A stretch of 64,000 nt of DNA from a virus (taxonomy: Duplodnaviria > Caudoviricetes): the IMG/VR virus record IMGVR_UViG_3300011008_000002; one strand, 5' to 3'. The notes below the pieces were generated by a model. That model had not been told where the DNA came from. It searched no databases and was given only the letters and a program-made list of their open reading frames with translations. The position numbers and the translations under genes were made by a program. Shown here in pieces: positions 49,235 to 64,000 of this stretch (the stretch's first letter is position 1; every line of letters begins with the position of its first letter).

Positions 49235-50137
49235 TTATACTCTCTTCCAAAGATCTGCATAACGTCTTGCGGTTTCCATTTCAGCCTGGAAGATAAATGT
49301 ATCAGAACCATTTTTGATTGAAAATGAATGGTTCCCATAAGTCTGTAATGTAGACATATCAAGATCAAACGACTCACATACGACCTTGAGATTGTCGGAA
49401 TCCCTCTCCAACATTTCTTTGATGTCTGAACCAAGAATAGCTCTGGAAGCATCCGGTAAAGGTTCATAACCAACCTTGATACTAATGATATTACTCTCGA
49501 AAGTCTTTTCTTCCCCAGTATAAAGCTTAGCGACCTTTGTTTTCTTAGGGTCAGCATAAGCTTCTTTATGAGAAGGAAGATGCACTTCATCATATGTAAT
49601 AAATCTCGGTGGTACCATAACATAGCTAACGTTACCCTTCTTATCAATAACAGCAAATCCTCTGTATGAATAAGACGGGTTGACACCTTGGATAATAGCC
49701 CTAGTTAGCTTTGTACCATACATACCATCATCAAGTGTCTCAATAGAACCTCTAATAAGGTTTCCATCTCTCCACATCTTCTTGATAATGTCGCAAGTAT
49801 ATTTCGGGTCGATTGTAGCAATCCTTGCAGGGGAACCATCAACCGGATGCCCAGCCTCGCTCTGAAGCTTATTATTGAGTATTAATTCTTTCACTTCATC
49901 AGTATTCAGAGATTTTTCAATCGCATCTCCTTTATAGTAACGCCTGTTTCTGTTTACGCAATCAAGAGATTGCAATATCGTATCGAACCTGACAAAGAAA
50001 AGCCCATTTTCCTTTATAACTTTCATGTTGGATACTTCATGAAAAGTATTATCATTTTCCATAAGGATAAATCCAAAAGGAACCTTAGGGGATATGGTTT
50101 TAGTAGCCATTATTGTTCTCCTTTCTGATATATTCAT
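49235..50137 (-). CDS. Prohead maturation protease (T4 gp21/PhiKZ gp175-like); start probably 50110
   Basis: NRNRRYY, SEAGHP, PSYSYRG, ITYDEVHLPSH. Confidence 0.85.
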   Translation of the reverse strand: MNISERRTIMATKTISPKVPFGFILMENDNTFHEVSNMKVIKENGLFFVRFDTILQSLDCVNRNRRYYKGDAIEKSLNTDEVKELILNNKLQSEAGHPVDGSPARIATIDPKYTCDIIKKMWRDGNLIRGSIETLDDGMYGTKLTRAIIQGVNPSYSYRGFAVIDKKGNVSYVMVPPRFITYDEVHLPSHKEAYADPKKTKVAKLYTGEEKTFESNIISIKVGYEPLPDASRAILGSDIKEMLERDSDNLKVVCESFDLDMSTLQTYGNHSFSIKNGSDTFIFQAEMETARRYADLWKRV

Positions 50138-50382
50138 TTATTGTCGTGTGCAGTGTGTAATCCCAATGATTACATTTTTATGCTGTATTTTACACTAAGA
50201 TAATTTTATAGGAAAGGGTGTTCAGGAGAACTTATCTATATAAAAGACAATAGAGGAAATAACGTTGAGTCCAATTTCTCAGTAAACGAAAATGTATGTG
50301 GGTGTTTGATGAAAATGGAAAATTGATATCAATAGAAACTGAATGATGACGCTAACAAGAGAGTAATTGGAGGTAAAGTATT

Positions 50383-50589
50383 ATGGCTTTAATAAAGACA
50401 CAATATGAGCTTTTCCAGGAATTCCTCTCTTCTCAAAGCGTCAGATATACAATCGAAGAATCATCCTCAAACGAATGGTATGGTACTAAGACAATTAGGA
50501 TATTGAACGATCATATACTCAGTTCAGGAATTTGTCACTTAGATTTTGATGCTGATACAGGCGATTTTATTGGAATTGAGGCAGAATGA
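50383..50589 (+). CDS. Small hypothetical protein
   Basis: Late motif at 50354; GGAGG RBS. Confidence 0.65.
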   Translation: MALIKTQYELFQEFLSSQSVRYTIEESSSNEWYGTKTIRILNDHILSSGICHLDFDADTGDFIGIEAE

Positions 50590-50654
50590 TTACAAAAAAG
50601 ACGATAGTGGATGATAAATTCACTATCGTCTTTTCTTATGCGATAATTTCATTT

Positions 50655-51686
50655 TTAGCCACGTCTTCTAAATTCAGATTCGACCAGAGTCATATCAGAC
50701 CTGTTATACAATGCAGTTGTTGATATGTCCGTATGACCGGCAATCACCTGAACTTCTTCTAACTTCATACCACGTTTTAATAAAGTTGTAATTCTTGTAA
50801 CCCTATATCTATGAGGGTGGGCGTGGTTTACTCTGGCTCTTTTTGATATTAATAATAACTTCTTTCGTATTGCATCTGGTTTCAATTTCGCATATGGAAA
50901 ATGAGTTGATACGAATAAGAAATCAGATTCAATTCCTTTTGATTCTCTATCTTTCATATACTCGTTGATATAAAACATAGCTTTATCTGTAAGGGGTACG
51001 ACCCTATCTTTATTTCCTTTACCGTGAAGTAATACTGTTTTCTTAACAGCGTTGATATCGGATACCTTTACTTGGCATAACTCCGATACACGACAAGCGG
51101 TAGAATAAAGGAATTCAAATATAGCTTTATCTTTAATATCCGTTGCATATACCATAATAGCTTCCATCTCCCATTCTGTAAATGGTTCTTCTTGATAACT
51201 ATCGTGTTTAATCTTAGAAAGTCTTTTAGCTGGACTTTTATCAATCATATCTTCATCAGATAACCAGTTAAAGAATGAGGAAAATATTCTCCTAATACCG
51301 TCCATAGATGTACTAGAATCATTCCCTTGTTGTTGATATACAGCCATGAAGTATCTGAGACTTGATGTCGACATATCACGAAATGTTAGGTTAGGATAGA
51401 AATCCATAAGCTTTCTGATGAAATATGCGTACCTTTCCAATGTCTTTTCTGAACGTCCTTCAATTCTCTTAGTAGCAAGGAATTGCTTAAGCATCTTTTC
51501 ATTATAATTATCATAAGGTACTAACTCAGTTTGTTTTTCTCTAATATCGTACTTGTAACAGGATGATATTATAAGGTTCTTAACATCCGTTATTTTATCT
51601 TGGTCTATGAAATTAGATAGCCCATCGACTAATTCTCTGATTAATGCTCCTTCAGAGTCCATATGAGTCTTCCTCCTTTCATACAA
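50655..51686 (-). CDS. Tyrosine recombinase (XerD-like, with SAM-like N domain)
   Basis: Catalytic set STACRVSEL, GKGNKDR, HPHRYR, GHTDISTTALY. Confidence 0.92.
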   Translation of the reverse strand: MYERRKTHMDSEGALIRELVDGLSNFIDQDKITDVKNLIISSCYKYDIREKQTELVPYDNYNEKMLKQFLATKRIEGRSEKTLERYAYFIRKLMDFYPNLTFRDMSTSSLRYFMAVYQQQGNDSSTSMDGIRRIFSSFFNWLSDEDMIDKSPAKRLSKIKHDSYQEEPFTEWEMEAIMVYATDIKDKAIFEFLYSTACRVSELCQVKVSDINAVKKTVLLHGKGNKDRVVPLTDKAMFYINEYMKDRESKGIESDFLFVSTHFPYAKLKPDAIRKKLLLISKRARVNHAHPHRYRVTRITTLLKRGMKLEEVQVIAGHTDISTTALYNRSDMTLVESEFRRRG

Positions 51687-51791
51687 AATAATAAATATAT
51701 ACTTTAAGACAAATTTTAATTTGTAAATTAAAAAAATGAATGTGAAGATAGAGGAACAAGGGTGGGAATGTTCCCACCCTTGTTTTGATAC

Positions 51792-52208
51792 TTAATTATT
51801 CAGAAACGCGCCAATCCTCTGGCAGTAGAAATAATCCCCAATGGGATAAGGATACTTCAGCACAAACTTCACGACGATGTCGAGATCTTTAGTAATTCCA
51901 TTAATCATATCTTCAATATCAGCAATCGCCGACAACTTAACGATAAAGTGGTCATCTCTCTGTTCAGTAAACCGCTTAATCATCTTCCTAGCGATGAACC
52001 CTACATTTAATTCGAGCATCGAAAAATACATATCGGTTTCCAACAAAGCACTGATGTCGGAAGTGAGTTTGTTGTACTGAGCTTCAGACAGCACTACCTT
52101 AGCGTCGGCAGTGAGTATGTCTTCAGCAGTGAAATTGGTTCCGTCGAATTCAAGAGATAACATTTTGACCTCCTTGTATATGTGAAATTGTTTATGGTTA
52201 TCAATCAC
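51792..52208 (-). CDS. Early hypothetical protein (start likely MLSLEF at 52163)
   Basis: Early motif at 52215-52222; GGAGG RBS. Confidence 0.65.
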   Translation of the reverse strand: MIDNHKQFHIYKEVKMLSLEFDGTNFTAEDILTADAKVVLSEAQYNKLTSDISALLETDMYFSMLELNVGFIARKMIKRFTEQRDDHFIVKLSAIADIEDMINGITKDLDIVVKFVLKYPYPIGDYFYCQRIGAFLNN

Positions 52209-52287
52209 TTGTTATTAATATATCACCAAAATTCGAAACTTATTTCGTCTCCGAACTTGCTGAAATCAATCTCCATATGAAACCTCC

Positions 52288-52587
52288 TTAATGGTGATAG
52301 TGGTTGTAGTGGCTCCTGTACCACTGACCGCTCGGACTGGTACACGTGAACTGGAGTCCTTTATCTCCCCAGTCATATGTACCAACCTTCCATCCTTTTT
52401 TGCGGAACCAATCAATGGCTTCTGCGATTGCATCCCATGCTGGATGCTTTTCGATATCCTTCGGGTCGTATTTGTCAAACACGGCACACAGAAAATCCTT
52501 CAGCTCATCTGGTTCATCCATGTTCATATGATACATGATGGTTGTTTCGAACCCCATAGAATGGCTAATTTTCTCGGGATACATCAT
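52288..52587 (-). CDS. Early hypothetical protein
   Basis: Early motif at 52619-52626; GGAGG RBS. Confidence 0.65.
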   Translation of the reverse strand: MMYPEKISHSMGFETTIMYHMNMDEPDELKDFLCAVFDKYDPKDIEKHPAWDAIAEAIDWFRKKGWKVGTYDWGDKGLQFTCTSPSGQWYRSHYNHYHH

Positions 52588-52655
52588 AATAGCTACCTCC
52601 TAAGTTTATTCTACAGATTTAATATATAATCAAATACATTTCAAAACGGATTTTG

Positions 52656-52691
52656 TAGTAGTCGTGTAAATTTTTGTTTACACGACTACTA
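52656..52691. terminator. Perfect 15-bp inverted repeat just upstream of the silent fibre cassette
   Basis: TAGTAGTCGTGTAAA-N6-TTTACACGACTACTA. Confidence 0.6.
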
Positions 52692-52712
52692 GGTTGATAT
52701 CCCATTTGTCCA

Positions 52713-52728
52713 TTAAATTCTGATTTAA
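52713..52728 (+). repeat. Putative recombination site A
   Basis: TTAAAT-TCTG-ATTTAA, encoding LNSDL in frame with the headless ORF. Confidence 0.5.
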
Positions 52729-53237
52729 CGGTCGAACGAAATCGGATAAGTCAGCTTGGATCTCTTGAAGAAGGATCAACTACAGGAGATGCTGAACTTT
52801 TGGACATTAGGATCGGTATTGATGGTACGACTACATATGCAAGTGCGGGTGAAGCGGTTAGGGAACAGATAAAGGGGTATCGCGATATATACGTTGGTGA
52901 GGATACTCCGCCAGTGAATGCAAAGGCATGGGTTGATACATCTGCGGATGATGGGTCAGTTACGTATATTCCAGAGATAGACGATAGTAATATCTCTTTG
53001 GTTGATACTTGGAGTTCAAGTAAGATTTCCAGTATGATTCAGGGGATGGTTATTTGTTCCTCTAGTGATGAACCTGAAAATGGAACTCCTATTTGGATTG
53101 ATACCGGTAGCGGTGCTGAGTTTTCAATACCTGAAATCAACGACTCCACTACGAGTTTGGTTGATACTTGGAGTAGTTCAAAGATTAATGCCGAACTTCA
53201 GAGTTTGTCGCAGCGTATAGCTGCACTAGAAAGTTGA
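52713..53237 (+). CDS. Headless tail-fibre C-terminal cassette
   Basis: Frame opens after TGA at 52695 and has no ATG/GTG/TTG until 52800. The phage-tail motif [28 protein letters not shown] spans that TTG. Two internal [16 protein letters not shown] repeats. Confidence 0.6.
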
Positions 53238-53252
53238 AGGGAGGGATAATAA

Positions 53253-54914
53253 ATGGCTAAAACAGTAAGCGATAATCTGTTAAAGGTTATCGGTAAAAAT
53301 GGGACTTATGAGAGTATCATAGGACTCAGAGGAGAGTCTGCATATGACATCGCCGTGAGGAATGGATACACTGGTACAGAGAATGATTTTTTGCTAGAAT
53401 TTGTACCAGATGATGTTGTACAGAACCTTATAGCGTTGACTACGAGAGTAAATAAACTTGAAGGGTATACTCTAGCGATACCTAAGGCGTCCACTTCAGA
53501 GCTTGGTGGAGTGAAAGTTGGTAGTGGATTATCAATTGATTCTAATGGTACATTATCAGCTAATGGTTACAATCTTCCAAAAGCAACAAGTTCAACTTTA
53601 GGTGGTGTTAAAGTAGGTACTGGACTGTCGGTTGATAATAATGGAGTTTTATCAAGCGATGTTGAACAGTATGAATTACCTAAAGCTTCTACATCTTCTC
53701 TTGGTGGAGTGAAAGTCGGAAGTAGGTTGACAATAGACTCTGATGGAGTATTGTCTGCTGATAATCAATCTTATGATTTACCGAATGCATCTGCTAGTAC
53801 ATTAGGTGGTGTAAAAGTTGGTAATAGATTGAGTATCGACGCGAATGGCGTGTTGTCAGCGAATGACCAAAGCTACACTTTGCCTACAGCAAGTGCAAAT
53901 GAAAAAGGTGGTATCAAGGTAGGGAGCGGTTTAAGTATTGATGGAAACGGAGTATTATCAGCTAATGAACCTACGATACCAACAGCAACTGCGTCAACTA
54001 TCGGTGGTATTAAGATAGGTGAAGGTCTCACTATACTCAACGGTGTGCTGAGTATTGATACAACCAAGTATATGCCTATACAAAACAATGCAGGATATCA
54101 TAATAGTGTATACAGGGGCAAAGACTTAACCAATGTATATACTATTGATGAAATATATAATAGGATTGATTCTGGTACTTTCGAGGATCTGTTTATTGGT
54201 GACTATTTCACGGTAACGATAAATACCTCATTGGGAGGGGAGGAAGAAGTAGAGTGCATACTAGCAGATTTTGACACATTTTATGATACACAACATTTTG
54301 GTTATAACGGTGATTTTTATGTTAGACGGCATCACGCAGTTATTGTTCCAAGAGATTGTTTTAAAGAGAAAGCCAGGTTCCATAGTTCGACATCAATTGA
54401 CGACATATTCAATAGTTATCCTTATAAGCCTGAGTTGATTAAAACAACTTTACCAATTTATGAAACAGCTATTAAAAGTGCGTTCAATAATAAGGTTATG
54501 GCGCATTATTGTAGAAACATGACTTCCTTTGATGCAAATATAGCTAGTAGTGCTGGTGCTGGACTTCTCGGTTCACTTACTAAGTGTAACTATAGTACGA
54601 CAATTCTTGAGTTAATGAATGCATATAATGTATTTGGAACATCTGAGATAAGTAGCTCATATTTGGACGGTTATGGAAATGATAAACAATTCAATCTATT
54701 CAGACATAATCCTGGAGAAATAGCATCTGGTCATGGATGGAACGATTCCCATACTTATAGGAAGTTAGGTTTTTATTGGTTATCTACCATTGTTAGTTCA
54801 AATAAGGCTGGATGCGTTGATGAACACGGAGCTATGGGCGCAGTATATGATATAACTCGTACAGGATATATCCGACCATATTGGGTTATGGGAAATAATT
54901 ATATGAGCTACTGA
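53253..54914 (+). CDS. Receptor-binding/fibre protein A (6 shaft repeats plus CLec-like tip)
   Basis: Six (L/I)P.A....LGG(V/I)K(V/I)G..L.I...GVLS repeats; YW.....IRPYW C terminus. Confidence 0.75.
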   Translation: MAKTVSDNLLKVIGKNGTYESIIGLRGESAYDIAVRNGYTGTENDFLLEFVPDDVVQNLIALTTRVNKLEGYTLAIPKASTSELGGVKVGSGLSIDSNGTLSANGYNLPKATSSTLGGVKVGTGLSVDNNGVLSSDVEQYELPKASTSSLGGVKVGSRLTIDSDGVLSADNQSYDLPNASASTLGGVKVGNRLSIDANGVLSANDQSYTLPTASANEKGGIKVGSGLSIDGNGVLSANEPTIPTATASTIGGIKIGEGLTILNGVLSIDTTKYMPIQNNAGYHNSVYRGKDLTNVYTIDEIYNRIDSGTFEDLFIGDYFTVTINTSLGGEEEVECILADFDTFYDTQHFGYNGDFYVRRHHAVIVPRDCFKEKARFHSSTSIDDIFNSYPYKPELIKTTLPIYETAIKSAFNNKVMAHYCRNMTSFDANIASSAGAGLLGSLTKCNYSTTILELMNAYNVFGTSEISSSYLDGYGNDKQFNLFRHNPGEIASGHGWNDSHTYRKLGFYWLSTIVSSNKAGCVDEHGAMGAVYDITRTGYIRPYWVMGNNYMSY

Positions 54915-54932
54915 AAGAAATGAGGTGTAATT

Positions 54933-55241
54933 ATGGTTTATACAAAACGCGAAAAGCTGTATAATAAAATTTATAGTATAGAAGTTAATGTTATCAGCCT
55001 TAAAGCTCAGCTTTCTTCCGATGCATCTCGTATCGGAGATTGGGCTGTGATTAAGTGCTACGAAGCTAAGCTTCAAAACAAAGAGCCTCATTACGACCTT
55101 GATAAGCTTCTTGCTGATCGTCAGGCGGCTCGTGATACAATCAATGAAAAGCAAGCTCAGATTGCTGCAATAGAAGCAGAGATGGCTTCTATGACAGAAG
55201 AGCAACTCAACGAAATTGTTGAAGAAATCGAACAACCATAA
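54933..55241 (+). CDS. Putative fibre chaperone/assembly protein
   Basis: Close paralog of 63551-63787 (SR.GDWAVIKCYEAKLQ.KEP.YD). Confidence 0.6.
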   Translation: MVYTKREKLYNKIYSIEVNVISLKAQLSSDASRIGDWAVIKCYEAKLQNKEPHYDLDKLLADRQAARDTINEKQAQIAAIEAEMASMTEEQLNEIVEEIEQP

Positions 55242-55250
55242 ACAATTTCA

Positions 55251-55266
55251 TTAAATTGGAATTAAA
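55251..55266 (-). repeat. Putative recombination site C
   Basis: Minus strand TTTAAT-TCCA-ATTTAA, about 10 nt after the chaperone stop. Confidence 0.45.
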
Positions 55267-55271
55267 TGGCT

Positions 55272-55466
55272 TGTAAACAAAAATTTACCATCAAAGAAAT
55301 AAGCATCAAGTTAGTCTTGATATACACAGGTTTAATCTACCAAAACTTTCCAATTCATCTTTTTACATTAAACTTCGGTTTATGAATTGTGGAAAATTTT
55401 GGAAGCTTGTAAATACGAGTCAATAGCTTGGAAAAATGTGCTATTTCTGGTAAACTTCTGTTTATA
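55272..55466 (+). ncRNA. Candidate ~195-nt rod-like RNA with cUUCGg apical loop
   Basis: Nested stems TAAACA/TGTTTA, TTTACC/GGTAAA, AGAAAT/ATTTCT, CAAGTTA/TAGCTTG, CAGGTTT/AAGCTTG, CCAAAA/TTTTGG, ATTCA/TGAAT, TAAAC-TTCG-GTTTA. Confidence 0.45.
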
Positions 55467-55532
55467 TGGAAAAACCTAGAAACTCGTCCACAGCGCATTT
55501 CTTAAAATGACAAAAAATACCTTGTTTGTCCA

Positions 55533-55548
55533 TTAAATTGGAGTTTAG
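55533..55548 (-). repeat. Putative recombination site B
   Basis: Minus strand CTAAAC-TCCA-ATTTAA; shares TTTGTCCATTAAATT with the flank of site A. Confidence 0.5.
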
Positions 55549-55695
55549 TCTTGGGTTTTAGTGAACTTTTATAGGATAGATAAACAGGGGTTTACAATTA
55601 TAATGGTCGATATGTCCTCAAATTCTGTTTTATTAAGTATATTAATTCACCGTAATTTAACGTTATTAGTTTTATATCGAGAGGGGAGATAATCT

Positions 55696-56064
55696 ATGAA
55701 ATTCGTCGAAACAAGTCGTAAAGAACGGAGACTACGTACCAATCCTAATAGTAGGTATTCTCAACTTCTCATCACAGGTATCATTGTTGATGTCAATGAT
55801 CTTGCAATGGGAAGATATAAAATCAGTGATACCTTATACGGGAGTCCTTGTAGACATTATAATGTCACTGTAATTATCGGAGAGGATATTATGGATTATT
55901 ATATTAACGAAGAAGATAAATGTGATAGTGATGAATATAAAATATCTGTAACTGGTATATGGACATCATTTACTAATGTTGATCCTATATATCCTCAAAT
56001 TAAGAAATATTTTCATGATATAGGATATGATATCGAATGCCTCGAAGTAGTTGGTCGCAAATAA
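55696..56064 (+). CDS. Early hypothetical protein (paralog of the next gene)
   Basis: MKFVE...YSQL.I.G; early motif at 55638. Confidence 0.65.
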   Translation: MKFVETSRKERRLRTNPNSRYSQLLITGIIVDVNDLAMGRYKISDTLYGSPCRHYNVTVIIGEDIMDYYINEEDKCDSDEYKISVTGIWTSFTNVDPIYPQIKKYFHDIGYDIECLEVVGRK

Positions 56065-56189
56065 TAACTAGAGTTAATTAATTCTAGTTATTCTTAATTG
56101 TGTTAAATCCATTTTGTGTGTATTTTATTGCTATATTAATTCTATAGATATAAAGAAACTATCAACAATAACCTACAAGGAGGTAACTT

Positions 56190-56558
56190 ATGAAGTTTGT
56201 TGAATCTGGTCGTATAGAGCAGAATCCGTTTGCAAACGCATCCACTTCTAGGAATGGAGGTGGTTATTCCCAACTATTCATCGGAGGATTTGTATTCGAT
56301 GATAGCCATGCTCCAATCGCAACATACACGATTGATGATACCTCTTGTGGAGAGTTTGGTAAGAGGTACGATGTGTCTGTGGTGATGATAAATAGGCATA
56401 TATATGGTTGGGAGTATTGTGTTGATACTGTTGATCGCAACAATCGTGAACATTCGACGTTCACGATAACCAATAAATATTACAAAGACATGAAAAAATG
56501 TCTGAAGGAGATTGGTTACGACATATGGAGTGCCGAAGAACTGGAAGACGATGCATGA
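56190..56558 (+). CDS. Early hypothetical protein
   Basis: MKFVE...YSQLFIGG; early motif at 56132. Confidence 0.7.
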   Translation: MKFVESGRIEQNPFANASTSRNGGGYSQLFIGGFVFDDSHAPIATYTIDDTSCGEFGKRYDVSVVMINRHIYGWEYCVDTVDRNNREHSTFTITNKYYKDMKKCLKEIGYDIWSAEELEDDA

Positions 56559-56691
56559 CAAATCCATTTCGTAGATATTTTGAAACCATATTAAAGATGT
56601 ATGAATGATGGAAAATGGTCATTCATCTCACATTGACGTAAGTTAGTGATACGTTCGTTACTAACTTCACTTATATTCCAAGGAGGAAGAA

Positions 56692-57147
56692 ATGATTAAA
56701 TTAACATTCAATCTCCCCAGTTTCCACAGGACTGGGAGGAACTCGTTCTCTAGCATACGTGAGGTTGGTATTGAAGACCTTGAGTATGCGGGGATGCGTA
56801 GGGTCGTGCTTGAGGAAGGAACGTTCGGTGCCTTCTTAAAGAGTCTTATTGAGTCACTCGACGAGGTTGGATATGATGATCTCGATGATCCCCAGGTCAA
56901 CACTATCTTTGATGTCATAGGTGATTTTATGGCTAAGGATAACGGTCGTTATATTGTGCGGTTAGATGACCTTGACAAAGATGAACTAGGCTCTCGTTTC
57001 TATAGAGGTTACAACTCATACAGCTACGAGCTTGTGTTTTCCGTAGCTTATGTTTTGAACGATGTTGTCTTTGTTGACAACATTGACGTGATATGGAGTA
57101 ATGATGATGAGGAGGAGGAAGAGTTCGATACATGGAAAGCTAAATAA
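56692..57147 (+). CDS. Acidic early hypothetical protein
   Basis: GGAGG RBS; CATATTAA at 56587. Confidence 0.65.
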   Translation: MIKLTFNLPSFHRTGRNSFSSIREVGIEDLEYAGMRRVVLEEGTFGAFLKSLIESLDEVGYDDLDDPQVNTIFDVIGDFMAKDNGRYIVRLDDLDKDELGSRFYRGYNSYSYELVFSVAYVLNDVVFVDNIDVIWSNDDEEEEEFDTWKAK

Positions 57148-57197
57148 ATAAAAAAAGAAAGGGCAAAGTCAATTTGCCCTTTCTTTTTTGTATTGGT

Positions 57198-58268
57198 TTA
57201 GACTTTTTTTGTATAAGACAAGTAAATCCAACCGGTCTTGCTTTTTAACTGACCCCAACCATCCTTAGTATTGATAATAGTATAGGTTCCTTTGTCTGTA
57301 ATAGCCCCAACCTTCGAATACGAAGTACCAGGACCAGAACGGATATTCAAGGAACTTGCTGTCACCTTAACCTTATAGGTTCCACTAATTGGAGCAGTCT
57401 CAAGAACTTGAGCAACCGACTTTATAGTCGTATACGCAAGGGAAATCCAACCCTTTCCGCTCTTAAGATAACCCCATTTGGTTCCGTCAGTAACCTGTTC
57501 CTTAACGATAGTATAGGTCTCACCTTGATGAACAGCCATTACCTTATCATACTTTACACCAGGACCAGAACGTACATTCAATTCCTTCGTATTGATGGTA
57601 ACTGTATAAGATGTAGTAGTCTGAGTGTTCTGATTTACAGGTTCAGGTTCTTCAGAAACAAGTTGTGCTGTCGTGTTGACATAGGTTCCTTTCATTGTAG
57701 CAGAGACATCCTTGCGGAAACCATCCATCGTATAAGGCATCTTAAGCTGCGTCCAATAATGTTCAGGATCGGCATGAGCAGACGCAAGCCCTCTCTTATT
57801 ACCTTCGTTATGAGAGAGAATAACACCATCCTTCAATGGATCAAGATTGTATTGCTTGCAAAGATAAGCAAACAGTTCAACTGCTGCGTTATAAGCAGTT
57901 TCACAATGCTTCCTTGCAATATCCCAATCAAGGACAGTAAATGTTGCCCCGCCAGTGTACTTGATCTTATTACTCTCGCACATCTCAACGCCGATGTGGG
58001 TATCATTCAAACTTCCATTCTTACCAGAAGCAGCGTGCCAACCTCTGTGGTTCCAAGGAAGCAATTGCCATACATCTCCAGTATTTGCGTCAATGAATGC
58101 GTGAACCCCCGCACGGCTATAAGATGCCTGATTGTAGATATTGTACCAAACTTGGGCACTCGGTTGAGCACATCCAACACTATGAAGTGTCAACCCTTTG
58201 ACTGTTGCCAACTTTCTCCCTGTTTTATAACAAGGGGAACTCGTTGCAAGTTTCGATAAAATATTCAT
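57198..58268 (-). CDS. N-acetylmuramoyl-L-alanine amidase with two SH3b domains (endolysin-like)
   Basis: LHSVG, VHAFID, GWHA, IGVEMCE, SH..HADP; two LN(V/I)RSGPG...WG.LKS..GWI.L.YT domains. Confidence 0.9.
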   Translation of the reverse strand: MNILSKLATSSPCYKTGRKLATVKGLTLHSVGCAQPSAQVWYNIYNQASYSRAGVHAFIDANTGDVWQLLPWNHRGWHAASGKNGSLNDTHIGVEMCESNKIKYTGGATFTVLDWDIARKHCETAYNAAVELFAYLCKQYNLDPLKDGVILSHNEGNKRGLASAHADPEHYWTQLKMPYTMDGFRKDVSATMKGTYVNTTAQLVSEEPEPVNQNTQTTTSYTVTINTKELNVRSGPGVKYDKVMAVHQGETYTIVKEQVTDGTKWGYLKSGKGWISLAYTTIKSVAQVLETAPISGTYKVKVTASSLNIRSGPGTSYSKVGAITDKGTYTIINTKDGWGQLKSKTGWIYLSYTKKV

Positions 58269-58414
58269 ATCTTATTTCTCCTTTCTAGGAATTTGTTATA
58301 CCATACAAAAATTAAACAACCGTCAAAACAGAGGCTACTAGTGGCTCACCTCCAAGAAAACCACCCCATTCACCTGTAGATTTGTTTTGACGGTTTGTTT
58401 TTTAACGGAAAACA

Positions 58415-59644
58415 TCAGATGTATTCAGCATTATCCATCCAGTCTTCAATAAAAAGGTCATTGTAGAGTTTATCCATTCGTTGAATAGTATGGTATGCAT
58501 TATACCATTGTGCGTTGCCTCTCCATGAACGATATTCATTTTGAGCATCAACATATGGTAATTCTCCATTGTTGACTTTCTTTGATAAACTCTTTAACTT
58601 ATTTCTTTGTCTTACGATATTATCGTGAGGCATTCTATGAATAACTTCTCCTGTTTCCGTTAATGTATACTTAGTTTTTAAGAACGTAAAGTTAGTTAAT
58701 GGACAGATTTGGGTTTTCTTCTGGTTCACATGAATACCCAAATCTGTACATATGCGGACGATATCATCATTTAGTAATGACTTCAAATAATCCTTACTTT
58801 CATGAATAATAGCGGTATCATCCATATATCTGTCATATAGATGATTACCCCTTACAATTTTACAGAAATTATCCATTTCTGTAGGATACAAGATTCCAGA
58901 AATCTGAGATATCTGGCTCCCAATTCCTAATGATTTTCTCATCATCTTTTCTCCAGTTCTTGCAGACTTTGGTATATCATTATAATAGTCCAAAGAACTG
59001 AATACTTCTTCTCGACAATGAGCATATTCTTCGTCAGTCATGTGGGAAACATCAACCTCAAATGTACTGATAAGGTATCTCACAATACCCATTGCAGCCT
59101 CATCTGGAATTTTCTCGTTTATGTAGTTTATTAGCTTTTCATGATCTATATTATCAAAGAATTTTTTGAAGTCAATAAGTAGCACGTAGCCCTTATTAGT
59201 TCCGTATCTACGATAATACCGATGCAGATGTACATCAAGTCTTTTTCTTGTAAACCCGATGCCTTTTCCTTTTACAGAAGCACCGTTGTCATAAATGAGA
59301 AATCTATGCAATGAAGGATTTAGGATATAATCACAAACAGCACGATTAATCACTCGATCAGAGATATGCAAAGATTTGATATGACGACGTTTACCTCGTT
59401 CGAATAAAGGAAATTCATAAAACGGTTTCTGATGATATGTATCAGTAGTCAGCATTCTGACTGTCCTATTTATATTTCGGAGCAAGGACGCTTCGTATCG
59501 TTGCACGGATTCCTTCCAATCTACGCCCTTCTTAGAATTATTGAACGCCGCCACCAAGTTATTCGCATTCAATAATTCATTGTAGAGAGAGTCCGAAGGT
59601 ATTTCTGAATCAATCATCCGTAAATCCCTCGTTTCTAGCACCAC
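58415..59644 (-). CDS. DGR reverse transcriptase
   Basis: DFKKFFDNI, GIGSQISQ (DGR SQ signature), RYMDD; adjacent to TR and avd. Confidence 0.93.
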   Translation of the reverse strand: MVLETRDLRMIDSEIPSDSLYNELLNANNLVAAFNNSKKGVDWKESVQRYEASLLRNINRTVRMLTTDTYHQKPFYEFPLFERGKRRHIKSLHISDRVINRAVCDYILNPSLHRFLIYDNGASVKGKGIGFTRKRLDVHLHRYYRRYGTNKGYVLLIDFKKFFDNIDHEKLINYINEKIPDEAAMGIVRYLISTFEVDVSHMTDEEYAHCREEVFSSLDYYNDIPKSARTGEKMMRKSLGIGSQISQISGILYPTEMDNFCKIVRGNHLYDRYMDDTAIIHESKDYLKSLLNDDIVRICTDLGIHVNQKKTQICPLTNFTFLKTKYTLTETGEVIHRMPHDNIVRQRNKLKSLSKKVNNGELPYVDAQNEYRSWRGNAQWYNAYHTIQRMDKLYNDLFIEDWMDNAEYI

Positions 59645-59744
59645 CTGACGTATCAGGATGCATCAAAGGATACATTTACCTCTCGGAAGGACAAGCTTTC
59701 CTTTCTTAATCGACCATATCGGCACTTAGCCTACTCGTAGTATG

Positions 59745-59845
59745 GTTTAAGAAATCGGGCGAACGCCATTGGAGTTCGACGCGTTGTTGTTATTGGAATT
59801 ACCATTGTTGTTGCAATTCGCGAAGTTCGTCGAGTTGACAACGGC
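59745..59845 (-). repeat. DGR template repeat (TR) with IMH*
   Basis: GCC GTT GTC AAC TCG ACG AAC TTC GCG AAT TGC AAC AAC AAT GGT AAT TCC AAT AAC AAC AAC GCG TCG AAC TCC AAT GGC GTT CGC CCG; 13 AAY codons and no third-position A. Confidence 0.92.
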
Positions 59846-59924
59846 TTTTTCTTCTCATCGAGATCAAAACTTGCCCATAGATGAATTGATAGAGCTTTTT
59901 GTCATCTATGGATATGTGTAGGTC

Positions 59925-60767
59925 TCATTGAAGAACTATAATTTCGTACATTTTATCATCTGTTGATGGGTTACTCGAATTATCAACAAATGAAGATGGT
60001 AATACCCTATATGGTTCAAGTGCCTCCTCAGAGATATAGTTAGTAATGTATTCCTCTGCATAAGACTTCTTTGGAGTATTTTCTTCTGATGCCTCTGGTG
60101 GTATAGAAACTTTCTCCTTTCTTTTGGAGTTTTTCTTTGTTTCTTTTTCTTCAGCTTTTAATTTAGCTATGTACTCTTGTTTTGCTTTGTTTTTACGTCT
60201 TTCGAAGTCCACTTCTCTCTTGGCTTCTAGTTCGGCAACTTTCTTGCCTAAACGACTTGTATCATTCTTTCTCCAAGCACGAAGTAGAGCTATCTCTTTC
60301 TCGATTAAATCTACGTATGGTAAGTATTTGTTGACATCGACATCAATCACTGTCATAACAAATTGCATTTCCTGTAGTAGTTGTTCACAACAACCAATAG
60401 CCTGAGTCTGATAGCGTCTTCTATCAGCGAGTTCAGATTCGGTTGTTGGATATAATGAGTTAGCCTGAATGATATTTCTTATGAGATATCTCGACTCAGA
60501 AGTAATTCGAGAACGGAGTTCGTTAATGAGCCATTCAGGATACTCATCAAGAATATTCCGAATATTGTATTTTTCTGTGATTTCGAGGAATTTCTCTCTG
60601 TCTTCCTCAGCCATTTTGTGAATACGAGCGTAGAAATCAGGATTACGAATTTTGTCCTTGATACCAAAATCCCTGAGCATAAGTAATACGAGTTTCCGTC
60701 TTAAAACGTATGCTGTGTGTAGAAACTCAAGTCTGGATGGACCACGTTTGCTTTTAAGCACTGACAT
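59925..60767 (-). CDS. avd: Avd-like DGR accessory protein with charged C-terminal extension
   Basis: Start re-called at MSVLKSKR (GGAGG RBS); ANSLYP, RR.YQ..AIG.C..L.QE, EI.LL..WRK; lies upstream of TR. Confidence 0.8.
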   Translation of the reverse strand: MSVLKSKRGPSRLEFLHTAYVLRRKLVLLMLRDFGIKDKIRNPDFYARIHKMAEEDREKFLEITEKYNIRNILDEYPEWLINELRSRITSESRYLIRNIIQANSLYPTTESELADRRRYQTQAIGCCEQLLQEMQFVMTVIDVDVNKYLPYVDLIEKEIALLRAWRKNDTSRLGKKVAELEAKREVDFERRKNKAKQEYIAKLKAEEKETKKNSKRKEKVSIPPEASEENTPKKSYAEEYITNYISEEALEPYRVLPSSFVDNSSNPSTDDKMYEIIVLQ

Positions 60768-60820
60768 TTCTTTGCCCTCCTGCTCATAATATAAATAGGA
60801 TATGGTAATATTTTCTACCA

Positions 60821-60833
60821 TTACTAAAATGTA
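60821..60833 (-). promoter_or_regulatory. Late-type phage promoter driving avd-TR-RT
   Basis: TACATTTTAGTAA matches NACA-N6-TAA. Confidence 0.55.
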
Positions 60834-60896
60834 GTAGTTGAAATAATTTATTAGAAAGGATGATTAGATATGAAAAAAATCATCCTTTCTAATAAA

Positions 60897-62156
60897 TTAG
60901 TTGTAGTAGTAGCTTGAAGCCCCATTGCTTAGTACAAACCAAGGAAATATTGCATTTTTCTGTGATGCTGGTTTTGGGTCTGGACCAAATAAGTCAGTAT
61001 TAAATAGAGCAAACTTAGTACTATTTACAACATCTGATAACCAATACCATGATGTATAATTAGAGCCAGCTTTAATAGGTCGGAATAATTCCCTATTATA
61101 TCTAAATGCCGCAAGTTGCATACTTTGATTACCTACATCATAGTATGACGAACTTAATAGGTCATAACCAAATAGCATAGCACTATTCAATAATGAGATA
61201 AATTTTGGTGGAGGGTTTTTAGTTATACTTGGATAGTAGTTGTTACTAGACGATGCCCCATCGAACCCTGCATACAAATTACTCTTTATGTTGGTATCGA
61301 CTGTGTCTGTTCCATATATATTTAATAGCGGTATTATACCATAATCCCGTAATGCATCTCTGAATAGTGTTGAATATGTAGATAACCCACCAGTAAATAA
61401 TTGAGAACCCATAAATCCACCAACTGTGGTATTAGTTGCATTCATTGCATATTCGCCGAAACATGTATCAGCTATCATAACGGCATGGTGATTACGACCC
61501 TCAGCGATGTTACCACCATTACCTGCATAGAAATAATCAAAATCTGCAAATATACATTTTACTTGCACATTTCCTGCACTTGGATCATTTATAGTTATAG
61601 TAAAGTAATCACCCACAAATAAATCGTCGAATTGTGCAGAGTATATTTTACTTTTTATTTGTTCAGCTGTATATATCCCAGTAAGATCTTTACCTCTGTA
61701 TATACTGTTATGATAGCCGGAGTTGTTCTGTATAGGCATATACTTACTTTCATCTATACTTAGTACCCCATTAAGTATAGTGAGACCGTTCCCTATCTTA
61801 ATACCACCTAATGTCGAACTAGATGCAGTAGGTATCGTAGGTTCATCAGCAGATAATACACCGTTTGCATCAATACTCAACCTATTACCAACTTTTACAC
61901 CGCCAAGGGTATTAGCGGATGCAACAGGCGGAGTGGTATCTATGTTAGCTACAGCGGCTTCAAGGTTAGTAACCCTAGTAAGTATGTTTTCAGGAACAAA
62001 TTGTTGTAAAAACTCGTTCTCTGTTCCAACAAACCCATTACGGACAGCTATATCATACGATGACTCACCTGGCGTACCAGTAACGGCTGCCATAGACTCG
62101 TAAGTTCCAGTCGATGGATTCTTAACCTTAAGAATAGGTTTCTTTAATGCTATCAT
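60897..62156 (-). CDS. Receptor-binding/fibre protein B (2 shaft repeats plus CLec-like tip)
   Basis: Paralog of A; tip YWLSDVVNSTKFA resembles TR-encoded AVVNSTNFA. Confidence 0.75.
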   Translation of the reverse strand: MIALKKPILKVKNPSTGTYESMAAVTGTPGESSYDIAVRNGFVGTENEFLQQFVPENILTRVTNLEAAVANIDTTPPVASANTLGGVKVGNRLSIDANGVLSADEPTIPTASSSTLGGIKIGNGLTILNGVLSIDESKYMPIQNNSGYHNSIYRGKDLTGIYTAEQIKSKIYSAQFDDLFVGDYFTITINDPSAGNVQVKCIFADFDYFYAGNGGNIAEGRNHHAVMIADTCFGEYAMNATNTTVGGFMGSQLFTGGLSTYSTLFRDALRDYGIIPLLNIYGTDTVDTNIKSNLYAGFDGASSSNNYYPSITKNPPPKFISLLNSAMLFGYDLLSSSYYDVGNQSMQLAAFRYNRELFRPIKAGSNYTSWYWLSDVVNSTKFALFNTDLFGPDPKPASQKNAIFPWFVLSNGASSYYYN

Positions 62157-62188
62157 AGCTTTTCTCCTTTCTTTATGTGAAAATATGT

Positions 62189-63343
62189 TTATCCAATAAG
62201 CCAGTATGGACGGATGCCCTTATAATTGTTGCGGTCTTCAGTTCCTATATTTCCATAGCTATTAATATAGAACCATTGATAATCGTTCGCATTATTATTA
62301 TATGGAGAGCCTAACCAGTAATCAGTATTATTACCATTTTTTCCTAATCCTGCTTGTTTATAATTAGAATTGAGCCTAAATATATCAAAATATCCATGTG
62401 TAAATGGTATGTCGTCACGATACATAGCAGTGAATTGTTCAAACCCAATAACGTTATTGACTAACATCAAAGCTAGAGTTACAGTTACCCAAGTATTATC
62501 TCTTTGCAGAAGTTGATGAGATAATATTCTGTTGTCCATAACACTATTGAGAGCCGTTTCATATTTTGGTAATATATATTGCTGTAAGCCGTTCTGATAA
62601 TTATATGATTTAAGGGTACTACTAGAAGTAGCATCAAGGTAGTTGGTTCTCGTAAAGCAATCTTTTGGTATTATTACTGCGTGGTGTTGTGTAACTGAAC
62701 CATAGTTAAGAAATGTATCGAATCCAGCAAACACGCAGTCAACTTGTTCATTACTGCTGTATGTTGTACTAATCGTTACTGTGAAATAATCTCCAATATA
62801 CAGATCGTCAAAGTGACCACTGGCTATACGATCACATATTTCAGTAACTGTGTATTTATTAGTGAGATCGTCTCCTCTAAGTATATTATTATGAATTCCC
62901 GCGTAATTATCAGAAACAACCACACCATTCACATCTAATGATAATACGCCATTTGTTACGGATAACCCATTCCCTACCTTTACACCACCAAGCGTTTCTT
63001 CTGTAGCATTTGGTAACGTATATTCTTGGGCGTTAGCAGATAATACTCCATTTCCATCAATACTTAGTCCACTACCGATCTTTACTCCGCCCAATGTATT
63101 AGCACTTGCTGTAGGAATTGTCACATCAATATTATCTACAGCAGACTCTAATGCACTTATCCGATTTAGTATATTCTCAGGAACAAATTGTTGTAAGAAC
63201 TCGTTCTCTGTTCCAGTAAATCCGTTAGCAACTGCAATATCGTACGATGATTTCCCATCATTCCCTACGATAGCAGCTATCTCGTCGTAATCCCCTGTAG
63301 TAGGGTTCTTCACTTTGAGGATAGGTTTCTTCAAAGCAATCAT
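62189..63343 (-). CDS. Receptor-binding/fibre protein C (2 shaft repeats plus CLec-like tip)
   Basis: Same N terminus as B (MIALKKPILKVKNP); ends in GIRPYWLIG. Confidence 0.75.
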   Translation of the reverse strand: MIALKKPILKVKNPTTGDYDEIAAIVGNDGKSSYDIAVANGFTGTENEFLQQFVPENILNRISALESAVDNIDVTIPTASANTLGGVKIGSGLSIDGNGVLSANAQEYTLPNATEETLGGVKVGNGLSVTNGVLSLDVNGVVVSDNYAGIHNNILRGDDLTNKYTVTEICDRIASGHFDDLYIGDYFTVTISTTYSSNEQVDCVFAGFDTFLNYGSVTQHHAVIIPKDCFTRTNYLDATSSSTLKSYNYQNGLQQYILPKYETALNSVMDNRILSHQLLQRDNTWVTVTLALMLVNNVIGFEQFTAMYRDDIPFTHGYFDIFRLNSNYKQAGLGKNGNNTDYWLGSPYNNNANDYQWFYINSYGNIGTEDRNNYKGIRPYWLIG

Positions 63344-63446
63344 AAAAGAATACCTCCTTTCTAATCATATAAAGAATAAAAAGTGAACGAGTCTAATTCC
63401 TTTTATATAGGAATGAACTCGTTCACTTTTTTCGTAACGCATTATC

Positions 63447-63462
63447 TAAAACTCCAATTTAC
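63447..63462 (+). repeat. Putative recombination site D
   Basis: TAAAAC-TCCA-ATTTAC; AAACTCCAATTTA is an exact inverted copy of 13 bp of site B. Confidence 0.5.
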
Positions 63463-63550
63463 GAGAGCAAGTGGGATTTTTACAACCCCACTTGCTTTGT
63501 TTATCCCAACCTCTACATATATTACCATTACTGGTAATTTTTAGGTTGGT

Positions 63551-63787
63551 TTACGCCAGCTGACCGTCCTCAGGAAGTGCTTCAAGCTGAGCCTGTAACT
63601 CATTGATCCTGTCACGGATTGCCTGACGCTCTGCAACAAGTGCATCAACATCATACGGCGGCTCCTTGTCCTGGAGCTTTGCCTCATAGCACTTGATTAC
63701 AGCCCAGTCGCCCACACGAGATGCGCTGGAATCCAGTTTTGCTTTCAGGGAGATGATTTCACCTTCGATTCTTTCACGCTCTGTCAT
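63551..63787 (-). CDS. Putative fibre chaperone/assembly protein
   Basis: Paralog of 54933-55241; follows the DGR target gene. Confidence 0.65.
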   Translation of the reverse strand: MTERERIEGEIISLKAKLDSSASRVGDWAVIKCYEAKLQDKEPPYDVDALVAERQAIRDRINELQAQLEALPEDGQLA

Positions 63788-63886
63788 CTTTTTATACCTC
63801 CATACTTTATTTTTTGCTTTTGGTCGAGATATTATATCTCAGATAGTTATTTATGCTGCCGCCAATGTTTTACAACATTTTGGCGG

Positions 63887-63979
63887 AATCGGGTAACGTG
63901 AGGTATCGTCCATACGCCCCACATGGGGGCGTGATTGGACGATACGGTTGCCTGACGGCAACCTCACGATTACCCGATT
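63887..63979 (-). promoter_or_regulatory. DGR homing hairpin/cruciform region downstream of IMH
   Basis: GGTTGCC-N4-GGCAACC; GTATCGTCCA..CGCCCC-ACAT-GGGGGCG..TGGACGATAC; outer inverted repeat. Confidence 0.7.
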
Positions 63980-64000
63980 AAGAAAAACGGGCGAACGCCA
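63970..64000 (-). CDS. 3' end of the DGR target gene (VR/IMH); the rest is outside the window
   Basis: T GGC GTT CGC CCG TTT TTC TTA ATC GGG TAA = GVRPFFLIG*; 13-bp identity to the TR 3' end. Confidence 0.8.
   Translation of the reverse strand, partial: GVRPFFLIG

Follow-up and report, generated by a model that had tools for sequence, protein, structure and literature searches.

A candidate two-state tail-fibre switch by DNA inversion, enclosing a DGR, in a gut jumbo phage

Results

The DNA described here belongs to a gut jumbo phage of lytic type. Its contig is 229 kb long, and the window, the 64,000-nt stretch that was analysed, forms one end of it. Both contig ends fall within one variable region (VR) of a DGR and share 38 nt of it. 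The genome forms a closed assembly, and the VR/TR overlap together with synteny in a related phage (G001) suggests that the two ends join. We compared the locus with that of three related jumbo phages (L043, L037 and G001), which with this genome make four lineages.

At the left of the locus lies a gene for a XerC/D-like tyrosine recombinase (50655-51686, minus strand; Pfam PF00589 Phage_integrase, 1.1e-36; PF13495). As the initial annotation had stated, it is intact: the reading frame is complete and the catalytic set R199, K223, H292, R295, H318 and Y327 (R-K-H-R-H-Y) is invariant across 25 homologues. Its NCBIfam matches are XerA/XerC/XerD-like, with every score under the equivalog cut-off, and in the structure model the N-terminus is a two-helix extension without a beta arm-binding domain or fold. 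A genome-wide domain search gave one PF00589 match, which makes this enzyme the sole site-specific recombinase of the genome. The same search returned no match to the serine-recombinase (Resolvase) domain PF00239, as would be needed for a serine-invertase switch of the Gin/Cin/Pin/Min type.

A perfect inverted repeat of 32 bp (0 expected by chance) has class-1 site A as its left arm (52713-52744, plus strand; core TAAA-TTCTGA-TTTA). Site A lies 1,027 bp from the recombinase gene, which is external to the repeat. Its partner A', an exact inverted copy on the minus strand of the window, is found 1.6 kb beyond the right end of the window (L001:10451-10482). A minus-strand partner just past position 64000 had been predicted from the window; it is indeed present, with an in-frame LNSDL, inside a fibre-like late gene of 231 aa (L001:10289-10984). 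The genome holds only two class-1 sites and only two tips. The expressed gene and the start-less cassette A each carry the repeat in frame, with the same 11-residue reading, and beyond it the tips are only 51% identical in protein, with synonymous sites saturated (pS 0.78). In the 231-aa gene, the first 54 residues are constant and a recombination-type site sits at codon 55, composed of the core and 17 further identical bases. The protein has no Pfam or PHROG match; its paralogy and context suggest a fibre or adaptor role. An AACA-N6-TAA late-promoter-like motif stands 40 nt upstream of this constant gene in the present genome, in L037 and in G001, and none was found upstream of the stored cassettes of the four lineages, save one weak non-AACA match in L043.

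The headless C-terminal cassette A (52713-53237, plus strand) has 174 codons counted from site A, within an open frame of 175 codons (52698-53237), and the DNA upstream of it lacks a start codon, an RBS and a promoter motif. In comparison with the relatives it is under purifying selection (pN 0.31-0.37 vs pS 0.67-0.72). On the other side of site A, 47 bp outside it, a hairpin (52656-52692) carries an accessory motif, TAAA-TTTTTG-TTTA (52667-52680), and forms a 16-bp perfect inverted repeat with positions 55272-55287.

The 32-bp repeat bounds about 12.9 kb of DNA, which is organised as two convergent arms. Arm 2 starts with the A tip and continues with the 553-aa distal fibre of the stored module M2 (53253-54914, plus strand; PHROG tail-fibre and head-fibre repeat matches, five 34-aa repeats), a putative fibre chaperone of 102 aa (54933-55241, plus strand) and, at its end, three small genes of 122, 122 and 151 aa with no assigned function (55696-57147, plus strand), the first two of which are preceded by TATATTAA-type promoter-like motifs. 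Arm 1 comprises the A' tip, the DGR target, a chaperone, two fibres, Avd, TR, RT and an amidase. The putative chaperone of this expressed module, M1 (63551-63787, minus strand, 78 aa), is 71% identical to its 102-aa counterpart in M2, and the two paralogous fibre genes (60897-63343, minus strand; 419 and 384 aa) match the DGR target and the 553-aa fibre at the N-terminus. A strong hairpin terminator (63377-63431) separates the 384-aa fibre gene from site D. The last gene of the arm, an endolysin with Amidase_2 and SH3 domain matches (57198-58268, minus strand), converges on arm 2 at a hairpin (~57145-57199).

The DGR consists of a reverse transcriptase (RT; 58415-59644, minus strand; PF00078, 1.3e-15; 76% identical in relatives), a template repeat (TR; ~59752-59848, minus strand, from TR/VR comparison), an Avd-like accessory gene (59925-60821, minus strand; PHROG 3206, Avd protein of DGR, 1.3e-6) and a target gene (63880-64000 in the window, minus strand) that runs across the contig junction. 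Between TR and RT lies an RT-2 RNA-like structured element (59604-59748, minus strand; Rfam RF03077, 34.9 bits against a gathering cut-off of 40, E 3.8e-5). Once the 38-nt end overlap is removed, the target protein has 332 aa and ends in ...GVRPFFLIG, with the VR at its C-terminus followed by a GC-rich palindrome. The RT is accompanied by a TR/VR pair that differs almost only at TR adenines (27 of 28 mismatches), the VR being located 3' in the target gene. The two contig ends differ across the VR overlap at TR-adenine positions, with one exception, and represent two haplotypes in one sample. Because the ends carry different VR haplotypes, we conclude that the DGR is active or was so recently. 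The initial annotation had placed the whole DGR between sites B and D and had taken its target as the switched cassette. Only TR, Avd and RT are located there; VR and target lie to the right of D and leave the window, and the target is a complete, separate gene downstream of the switched gene.

The coordinates and strands given earlier for four 16-bp sites (A at 52713, C at 55251, B at 55533 and D at 63447) all hold. The sites do not form the single family that had been proposed, and fall into two classes. B (55533-55548, plus strand; TAAA-TTGGAG-TTTA), D (63447-63462, minus strand; TAAA-TTGGAG-TTTTA) and the degenerate, class-2-like C (55251-55266, plus strand; spacer TTGGAA) share the TAAA/TTTA arms with class 1, differ from it in the 6-bp spacer (TTCTGA in A) and are located at module ends, C directly 3' of the M2 chaperone and D directly 3' of the M1 chaperone. 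They are unlikely partners of A and look like a second, heterospecific class of site. B and D have 13 bp in common in inverted orientation, and B and A have the same 15-bp left flank.

Comparison of the motif counts with the background, as proposed in the initial annotation, gave a strong enrichment at the locus: eight of the 18 TAAA-N6-TTTA motifs of the genome lie here, a degenerate pattern spanning A and D has 2 matches vs 0.01 expected, and the class-2 core occurs in the 229 kb only at B and D. Around B, a cluster of TAAA-N6-TTTA motifs (55274, 55369, 55451, 55534 and 55581) with TGGAA repeats occupies 55272-55594, and its layout is conserved beside the class-2b site of the relatives.

Both site classes occur at the same places in the three related jumbo phages, and the recombinase gene adjoins the stored module in 4 of 4 lineages. 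The sequence of the class-1 repeat is particular to each lineage: L043 has 24 bp in inverted orientation and L037 a perfect 31 bp in direct orientation, and in three lineages the outer edge of identity coincides exactly with the TAAA core. This boundary-limited identity, with its own sequence in each lineage, amounts to concerted evolution of the class-1 site. Class-2 sites are found twice per genome, always directly 3' of the final gene of a module, even where no gene comes next (L037), and their relative orientation tracks that of class 1. Alternative orientations in related genomes had been anticipated, and the stored module is found both ways round, inverted in two lineages (this genome and L043) and direct in two (G001 and L037), with the orientation differing only between lineages, whose recombinases are about 66% identical. 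Within the L037 species, a single arrangement is seen in five of five samples. With the class-1 pair direct in two lineages, the same enzyme would there delete the segment, and inversion is therefore not the conserved outcome. Headless cassettes are a constant of all four lineages, with open frames of 174-401 codons under purifying selection (pN 0.23-0.37 vs pS 0.67-0.82).

Discussion

We propose that the locus is a two-state switch of tail-fibre modules, operated by site-specific inversion and enclosing a working DGR, and we give this reading a probability of roughly 0.6. The sequences of both states of the tip can be read directly: the late gene to the right of the window joins the constant head to the A' tip, and an exact inverted 32-bp copy heads the promoter-less, start-less cassette at 52713. 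The XerC/D-like recombinase, which we infer to act on the class-1 sites, would exchange strands in the 6-bp spacer and flip the 12.9 kb. Such a flip would join tip A in frame to the constant head. It would also place the late promoter ahead of the 553-aa fibre and its chaperone, which would take over the position of tip A', of the DGR target and of the chaperone of the latter. The phage would then alternate between a DGR-mutated and a fixed receptor-binding set. With less certainty, B and D, with spacer TTGGAG at the 3' module ends, may allow the same enzyme to invert independently the inner 7.9 kb, which holds the fibres, Avd-TR-RT, the amidase and the three small genes.

An inversion at A that swaps cassettes had been put forward in the initial annotation. 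Its geometry fits, with tip A, the 553-aa fibre and chaperone in position to replace the A' tip, DGR target and chaperone; the flip itself and its reversibility are predicted from the arrangement of the sequence. No flipped joints were seen in public contigs of the source sample (Logan, ~4x deep), exact 26-mer and 32-mer searches with the repeat gave no matches in IMG/VR and JGI metagenomes, and a chimeric constant-plus-A protein is absent from a set of 5.8 billion proteins. As neither junction reads, chimeric proteins nor within-species orientation variants were found, we infer the activity of the switch from its layout.

The absence of the alternative orientation from every data set examined is also what would be expected if cassette A and its neighbours were leftovers of a module duplication, the repeats being kept by occasional homologous gene conversion and the recombinase serving integration or multimer resolution. 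A homologue 49% identical to the recombinase does lie at a prophage edge beside host genes, in an integrase-like context, and the class-1 pair of G001 has decayed to about 10 identical bases. Nevertheless, we consider a relic unlikely. It would have to accommodate headless cassettes that stay open and selected in four lineages, repeat identity that stops precisely at the core boundary in three, and a second, non-coding site class conserved at module ends. Moreover, no prophage copy of these phages and no close relative were found among 185,579 species-representative genomes, and the closed assembly likewise speaks against it.

Still less probable, in our judgement, is a one-way or copy-type replacement of cassettes in place of reversible inversion. 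Here, recombination first at class-1 and next at class-2 sites, by excision and re-insertion or by exchange between sister genomes, would swap modules while the inner DGR/lysis block keeps its orientation, as in a natural recombinase-mediated cassette exchange; alternatively, direct-type relatives would delete 12.5 kb. The bracketing of each module in four lineages by two site classes with common arms and unlike spacers is consistent with this, as is the retention of a perfect direct class-1 repeat in L037. A second lysozyme is encoded beyond the limits of the segment and could leave deletion products able to lyse. However, both site pairs are inverted in this genome, which points to inversion and not excision, deletion or swapped forms were not found in assemblies, and the spacer-determined specificity on which the scheme depends is presumed by analogy with other tyrosine recombinases.

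That the TAAA-N6-TTTA motifs are merely transcription-factor operators for early and late genes around the module, with the class-1 copy a coding coincidence, is very improbable: the motif is short and AT-rich and clusters intergenically beside TATATTAA-type promoter-like sequences, but operators leave unexplained the perfect in-frame inverted repeat, the headless cassettes and the strict class-2 placement 3' of modules regardless of a following gene.

An extension of the switch that we offer tentatively, and hold to be doubtful, is that one recombinase with two heterospecific cores (the same arms, with spacers TTCTGA or TTGGRG) at the 5' and 3' ends of modules forms a natural cassette-exchange device. 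Whole modules, each of tip, distal fibre and chaperone, would be swapped by nested inversions in inverted-type genomes, or by excision and re-insertion in direct-type genomes, with the orientation of the DGR/lysis block kept. The DGR could then mutate the stored target and bank pre-diversified receptors.

Among the closest known systems is the Rin shufflon, found in prophages of Bifidobacterium and Eggerthella (Mavrich et al. 2018, PMC6109161; PMC8778435). In these temperate siphophages, several small cassettes are packed into 2-4 kb, the sites measure 10-11 bp, and inversion has been seen in reads. The BV01-like tail-fibre shufflon (PMC13596623) is a further close system. As in Rin, the present locus is phage-encoded and has a XerD-like tyrosine recombinase beside it, modelled without a lambda-type arm-binding domain. 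It likewise combines the constant N-terminal part of a receptor-binding or fibre gene with short in-frame inverted repeats at the constant/variable junction and promoter-less, start-less alternative C-terminal cassettes that are maintained as coding. In contrast to Rin, it has a second site class and two tips, separated by 12.9 kb in a phage of 229 kb, with a downstream fibre and chaperone for each tip; the DNA predicted to flip, as judged from sequence, encloses a full DGR, two more fibres and an endolysin.

Similarly to the G segment of Mu, the C segment of P1 (Gin, Cin) and p15B Min, which are two-state host-range switches, the locus has convergent arms that each begin with a headless fibre tip followed by an assembly gene, inverted repeats at the constant/variable junction and a recombinase gene just outside. 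Those systems, however, use serine invertases and a Fis-dependent enhancer, whereas this genome is without a serine recombinase, and the G segment is 3 kb with tip and assembly genes only. The R64 shufflon (Rci, sfx sites) is a plasmid pilus-adhesin system of seven sites and four segments. It shares with our locus a tyrosine recombinase and asymmetric sites (spacer and inner arm conserved, outer arm not) that open each cassette in frame, but the sites have no sequence similarity and the recombinase here is XerA/C/D-like, not Rci-like. An R64-like multi-cassette shufflon had been the original proposal. A shufflon in the strict sense has at least three interchangeable cassettes with a common site; with two class-1 sites, two tips and a different spacer in the other sites, the locus instead resembles a switch with two states, like the G segment, in which a second inversion may perhaps be nested.

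As in phage DGRs such as that of Bordetella BPP-1 (Mtd) and those of gut phages, we find an RT, an Avd-like gene, adenine-specific TR/VR differences and a fibre-like target that has the VR at its C-terminus, with a GC-rich palindrome after it. Unlike in those, the whole DGR lies within DNA that is putatively invertible, and of the two modules that could be exchanged, one contains its target. Two programmed changes of host range are known in phages, the swap of fibre tips by inversion and the hypermutation of tips by a DGR, and our literature search for both in one device found no report. Fibre switches by inversion are already known from small phages; none is known with a hypermutation system inside.

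If the inversion takes place, a continuously mutating and a fixed receptor-binding set would stand under a single late promoter and be chosen by flipping 5.6% of the genome. The lineages, at least four in number, further offer a natural experiment on the way in which site orientation, inverted or direct, and site classes with their own spacers shape the outcomes of tyrosine-recombinase reactions. For assembly and annotation the locus carries a warning, in that the VR breaks contigs and intact fibre genes resemble headless pseudogenes.

Site A has an exact inverted partner in a late fibre-like gene

The four 16-bp sites A–D were all recovered where the initial annotation had placed them, and the partner that it predicted for A beyond the window end exists: searching the rotated genome gave one exact copy (A′), on the opposite strand and 1.6 kb past that end. 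A and A′ are identical over 32 bp, with a sharp stop on the outer side. A′ occupies codons 55-65 of a gene for a 231-aa fibre-like late protein (the constant gene, L001:10289-10984; L001 and L002 are other parts of the same contig), and A lies in cassette A, an open frame without a start (52698-53237, +), both encoding the same eleven residues in frame at the repeat. Past these residues, tips A and A′ are 51% identical and synonymous sites are saturated. Inversion between A and A′ would attach tip A to a constant head of 54 residues.

The constant gene carries AACACATCTATAA at −40 (L001:10249-10261), after a terminator hairpin. This putative late-promoter motif, AACA-N6-TAA, is kept at the equivalent position in the relatives L037 and L022 and is compatible with an AR9-like late promoter for a phage-encoded RNA polymerase. 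Upstream of cassette A, we found no AACA-N6-TAA motif, start codon or RBS. Motifs of the TATATTAA type stand ahead of small genes at 52588, 52215, 55650 and 56140.

The segment between A and A′ measures 12,894 bp when the contig ends are simply joined and about 12,856 bp once their overlap is taken out, and consists of two arms converging on a hairpin near 57170 (feature order in the window is from an ORF listing and family scans). The first arm comprises tip A′, the target of a diversity-generating retroelement (DGR), a 78-aa protein (63551-63787, −), site D, a terminator, two fibre paralogues of 384 aa (62189-63343, −) and 419 aa (60897-62156, −), an Avd-like accessory gene (59925-60821, −), the template repeat (TR), the reverse transcriptase (RT; 58415-59644, −) and an amidase endolysin (57198-58268, −). 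The second comprises tip A, a repeat-rich 553-aa fibre (53253-54914, +), a 102-aa protein (54933-55241, +), sites C and B, and three small genes (55696-57147, +); a 454-bp non-coding stretch occupies 55242-55695. The 78-aa and 102-aa proteins, putative chaperones, are 71% identical, and each closes a module that opens with a tip: module 1 with the DGR target, module 2 with the 553-aa fibre. Outside the segment are a GH24 lysozyme, the tyrosine recombinase (50655-51686, −) and two small genes between 51686 and 52698 (−).

No Pfam, PHROG or NCBIfam family matches cassette A, the 231-aa protein, either chaperone or the small genes, and an Atlas look-up yielded no more than weak leads to fibre repeats, all below 0.9. 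Five proteins at the locus have related fibre N-termini or tips. A 354-aa protein encoded upstream of the lysozyme (L001:7461-8525) carries DUF6273, which also matches the C-terminal end of the 384-aa fibre weakly.

The contig ends meet in the DGR variable region

The window corresponds to bases 57-64056, read on the reverse strand, of one virus contig of 229,126 bp, 97% complete according to CheckV. The TR (about 59752-59848, −) matches both contig ends, with 27 of the 28 differences at TR adenines, and the ends share a 38-nt overlap of variable region (VR) in which they carry different variants (window 63984-64000 and beyond; L001:11939-12000; L002:1-56). It follows that the genome is circular or circularly permuted, that the assembly stopped at a VR of mixed sequence in the sample, and that the DGR is still active or was so until recently. 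In the P0124 contexts, contigs break at the VR only. The concatenated target frame is shifted until the 38-nt overlap is removed, after which it encodes a 332-aa protein ending in ...GVRPFFLIG, with its own ATG and RBS and an N-terminus common to three other fibres. No second VR was found for this TR. Between the TR and the RT gene, 59604-59748(−) gives a sub-threshold match to the Rfam RT-2 RNA (34.9 bits, E 3.8e-5).

The sites fall into two classes

Each site follows the pattern TAAA-N6-TTTA, and the classes differ in the spacer: TTCTGA in class 1 (A and A′), and in class 2 TTGGAG at B and at D, where a T is added, or TTGGAA at C. A search of the 229 kb for the class-2 core that tolerated one mismatch found B and D only. 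Counted genome-wide, as the initial annotation had proposed, the general motif shows no excess (18 copies vs 15.5 ± 3.8 in shuffles), but 8 of the 18 lie at the locus, five of them within 310 bp around B. A 3-kb stretch contains seven motifs where about 0.14 would be expected (Poisson estimate from the genome counts). In addition, module 2 is bracketed, at 52666 and 55272, by a perfect 16-bp inverted repeat built on the same pattern (spacer TTTTTG / CAAAAA).

We also note a 17-bp perfect inverted repeat at 52183-52199 and 55234-55250. One of its arms spans the stop codon of the 102-aa gene and runs up to site C; the other is intergenic, upstream of a 123-aa gene near the recombinase, and is followed by no site-like sequence. 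This repeat may be the footprint of an old rearrangement.

Site classes and gene order are kept in related lineages

Recombinase homologues with 66-67% identity are found on contigs of 228-244 kb. Three of these lineages keep the same gene order: constant gene, target, chaperone, fibre(s), Avd, TR, RT, lysin(s), stored cassette, recombinase and prohead protease. Every lineage has one class-1 site in the constant gene and another heading a start-less cassette, as well as a class-2 site directly 3′ of the last gene of each module. The class-1 pair is perfect over 32 bp in the present genome, 24 bp in L043 and 31 bp in L037, whereas in G001 no more than about 10 bases are identical. A class-2 pair is present throughout (B and D in the present genome). 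Both pairs are inverted in the present genome and in L043, and direct in G001 and in L037, where five samples have the same arrangement. The class-1 repeats are identical within a lineage and different between lineages, a case of concerted evolution limited to the site. Stored cassettes stay open over 174-401 codons, and their pN (0.23-0.37) is below their pS (0.67-0.82).

Among INPHARED phages no relative was found, save a weak endolysin match. A Logan contig of a related phage begins exactly inside the class-1 site (L026:1), as expected since the assembler's word length is the same 31 bp as the repeat; breaks inside the class-1 repeat could therefore serve to find more members of the system.

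An inversion switch is the favored reading

Taken together, we consider the locus to be an active inversion switch, with a probability of roughly 0.6. The core geometry proposed in the initial annotation holds, while details such as its single site family do not. A run search gave a single match, as Logan contigs at about 4x, and three runs compared with 50001-64000 show no joints or loose ends at A–D; this result is uninformative and does not count against inversion. The exact 32-mer and 26-mer parts of the repeat are absent from IMG/VR and JGI metagenome contigs, protein searches with the 231-aa protein and the L037 constant protein returned no chimeric (switched) or deletion forms, and no flipped state was seen in the sequence, contig and protein data sets searched.

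Exchange of modules at this locus through the two site classes is conceivable, and we regard it as rather unlikely. Direct sites in two lineages would delete, not invert, and the device's conserved function may therefore exceed inversion, for example as cassette exchange via two site classes or as one-way deletion.

The gene at 50655-51686 is the sole tyrosine recombinase in the genome, which has no serine recombinase. The protein matches XerA/XerC/XerD-like families, in each case below the equivalog cut-off; XerC-like, XerD and XerA proteins are its nearest relatives of solved structure, and its catalytic residues are all invariant. The model (pLDDT 86) reveals a two-helix N-terminal extension, and a lambda-type arm-binding domain was looked for in it and not found. 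No close relative exists in GTDB species genomes. A 49%-identical homologue sits at the edge of a small prophage, beside host genes, so the family may act as an integrase. The P0012 and P0023 contexts represent other phage types.

The 15 bases TTTGTCCATTAAATT are repeated directly at 52705-52719 (outer flank of A) and 55525-55539 (module-side flank of B), and B consequently looks like a hybrid with its left half from A and its right half from D. We considered that B may be a hybrid scar of a class-1 × class-2 deletion, which would account for the left flank in common with A. Recombination of A with B, C or D as the main route, implied by the single family of the initial annotation, is rejected because the central bases differ between inverted partners (TCTG vs TCCA/CCCA) and A has an exact partner.

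Comparison with known switches

Published phage tyrosine-recombinase switches include Rin, which acts on receptor-binding genes in Bifidobacterium and Eggerthella prophages (PMC6109161, PMC8778435), and the BV01-like tail-fibre shufflon (PMC13596623). The present locus is closest to the Mu G segment in arm layout and to Rin in enzyme class. The Rin shufflon and DGRs occupy different prophage clades (PMC8778435), and our literature search found no paper with a DGR inside, or switched by, such a device. New here, as read from sequence, would be the segment size, the enclosed DGR and endolysin, whole-module exchange, the second site class and the jumbo-phage setting; activity is a proposal.

Elsewhere on the contig, the gene of a YpsA/SLOG-family protein overlaps that of a microbial-type poly(ADP-ribose) glycohydrolase (L001:3386-4934). 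The pair is kept in relatives L043 and L044, and may serve in counter-defence.
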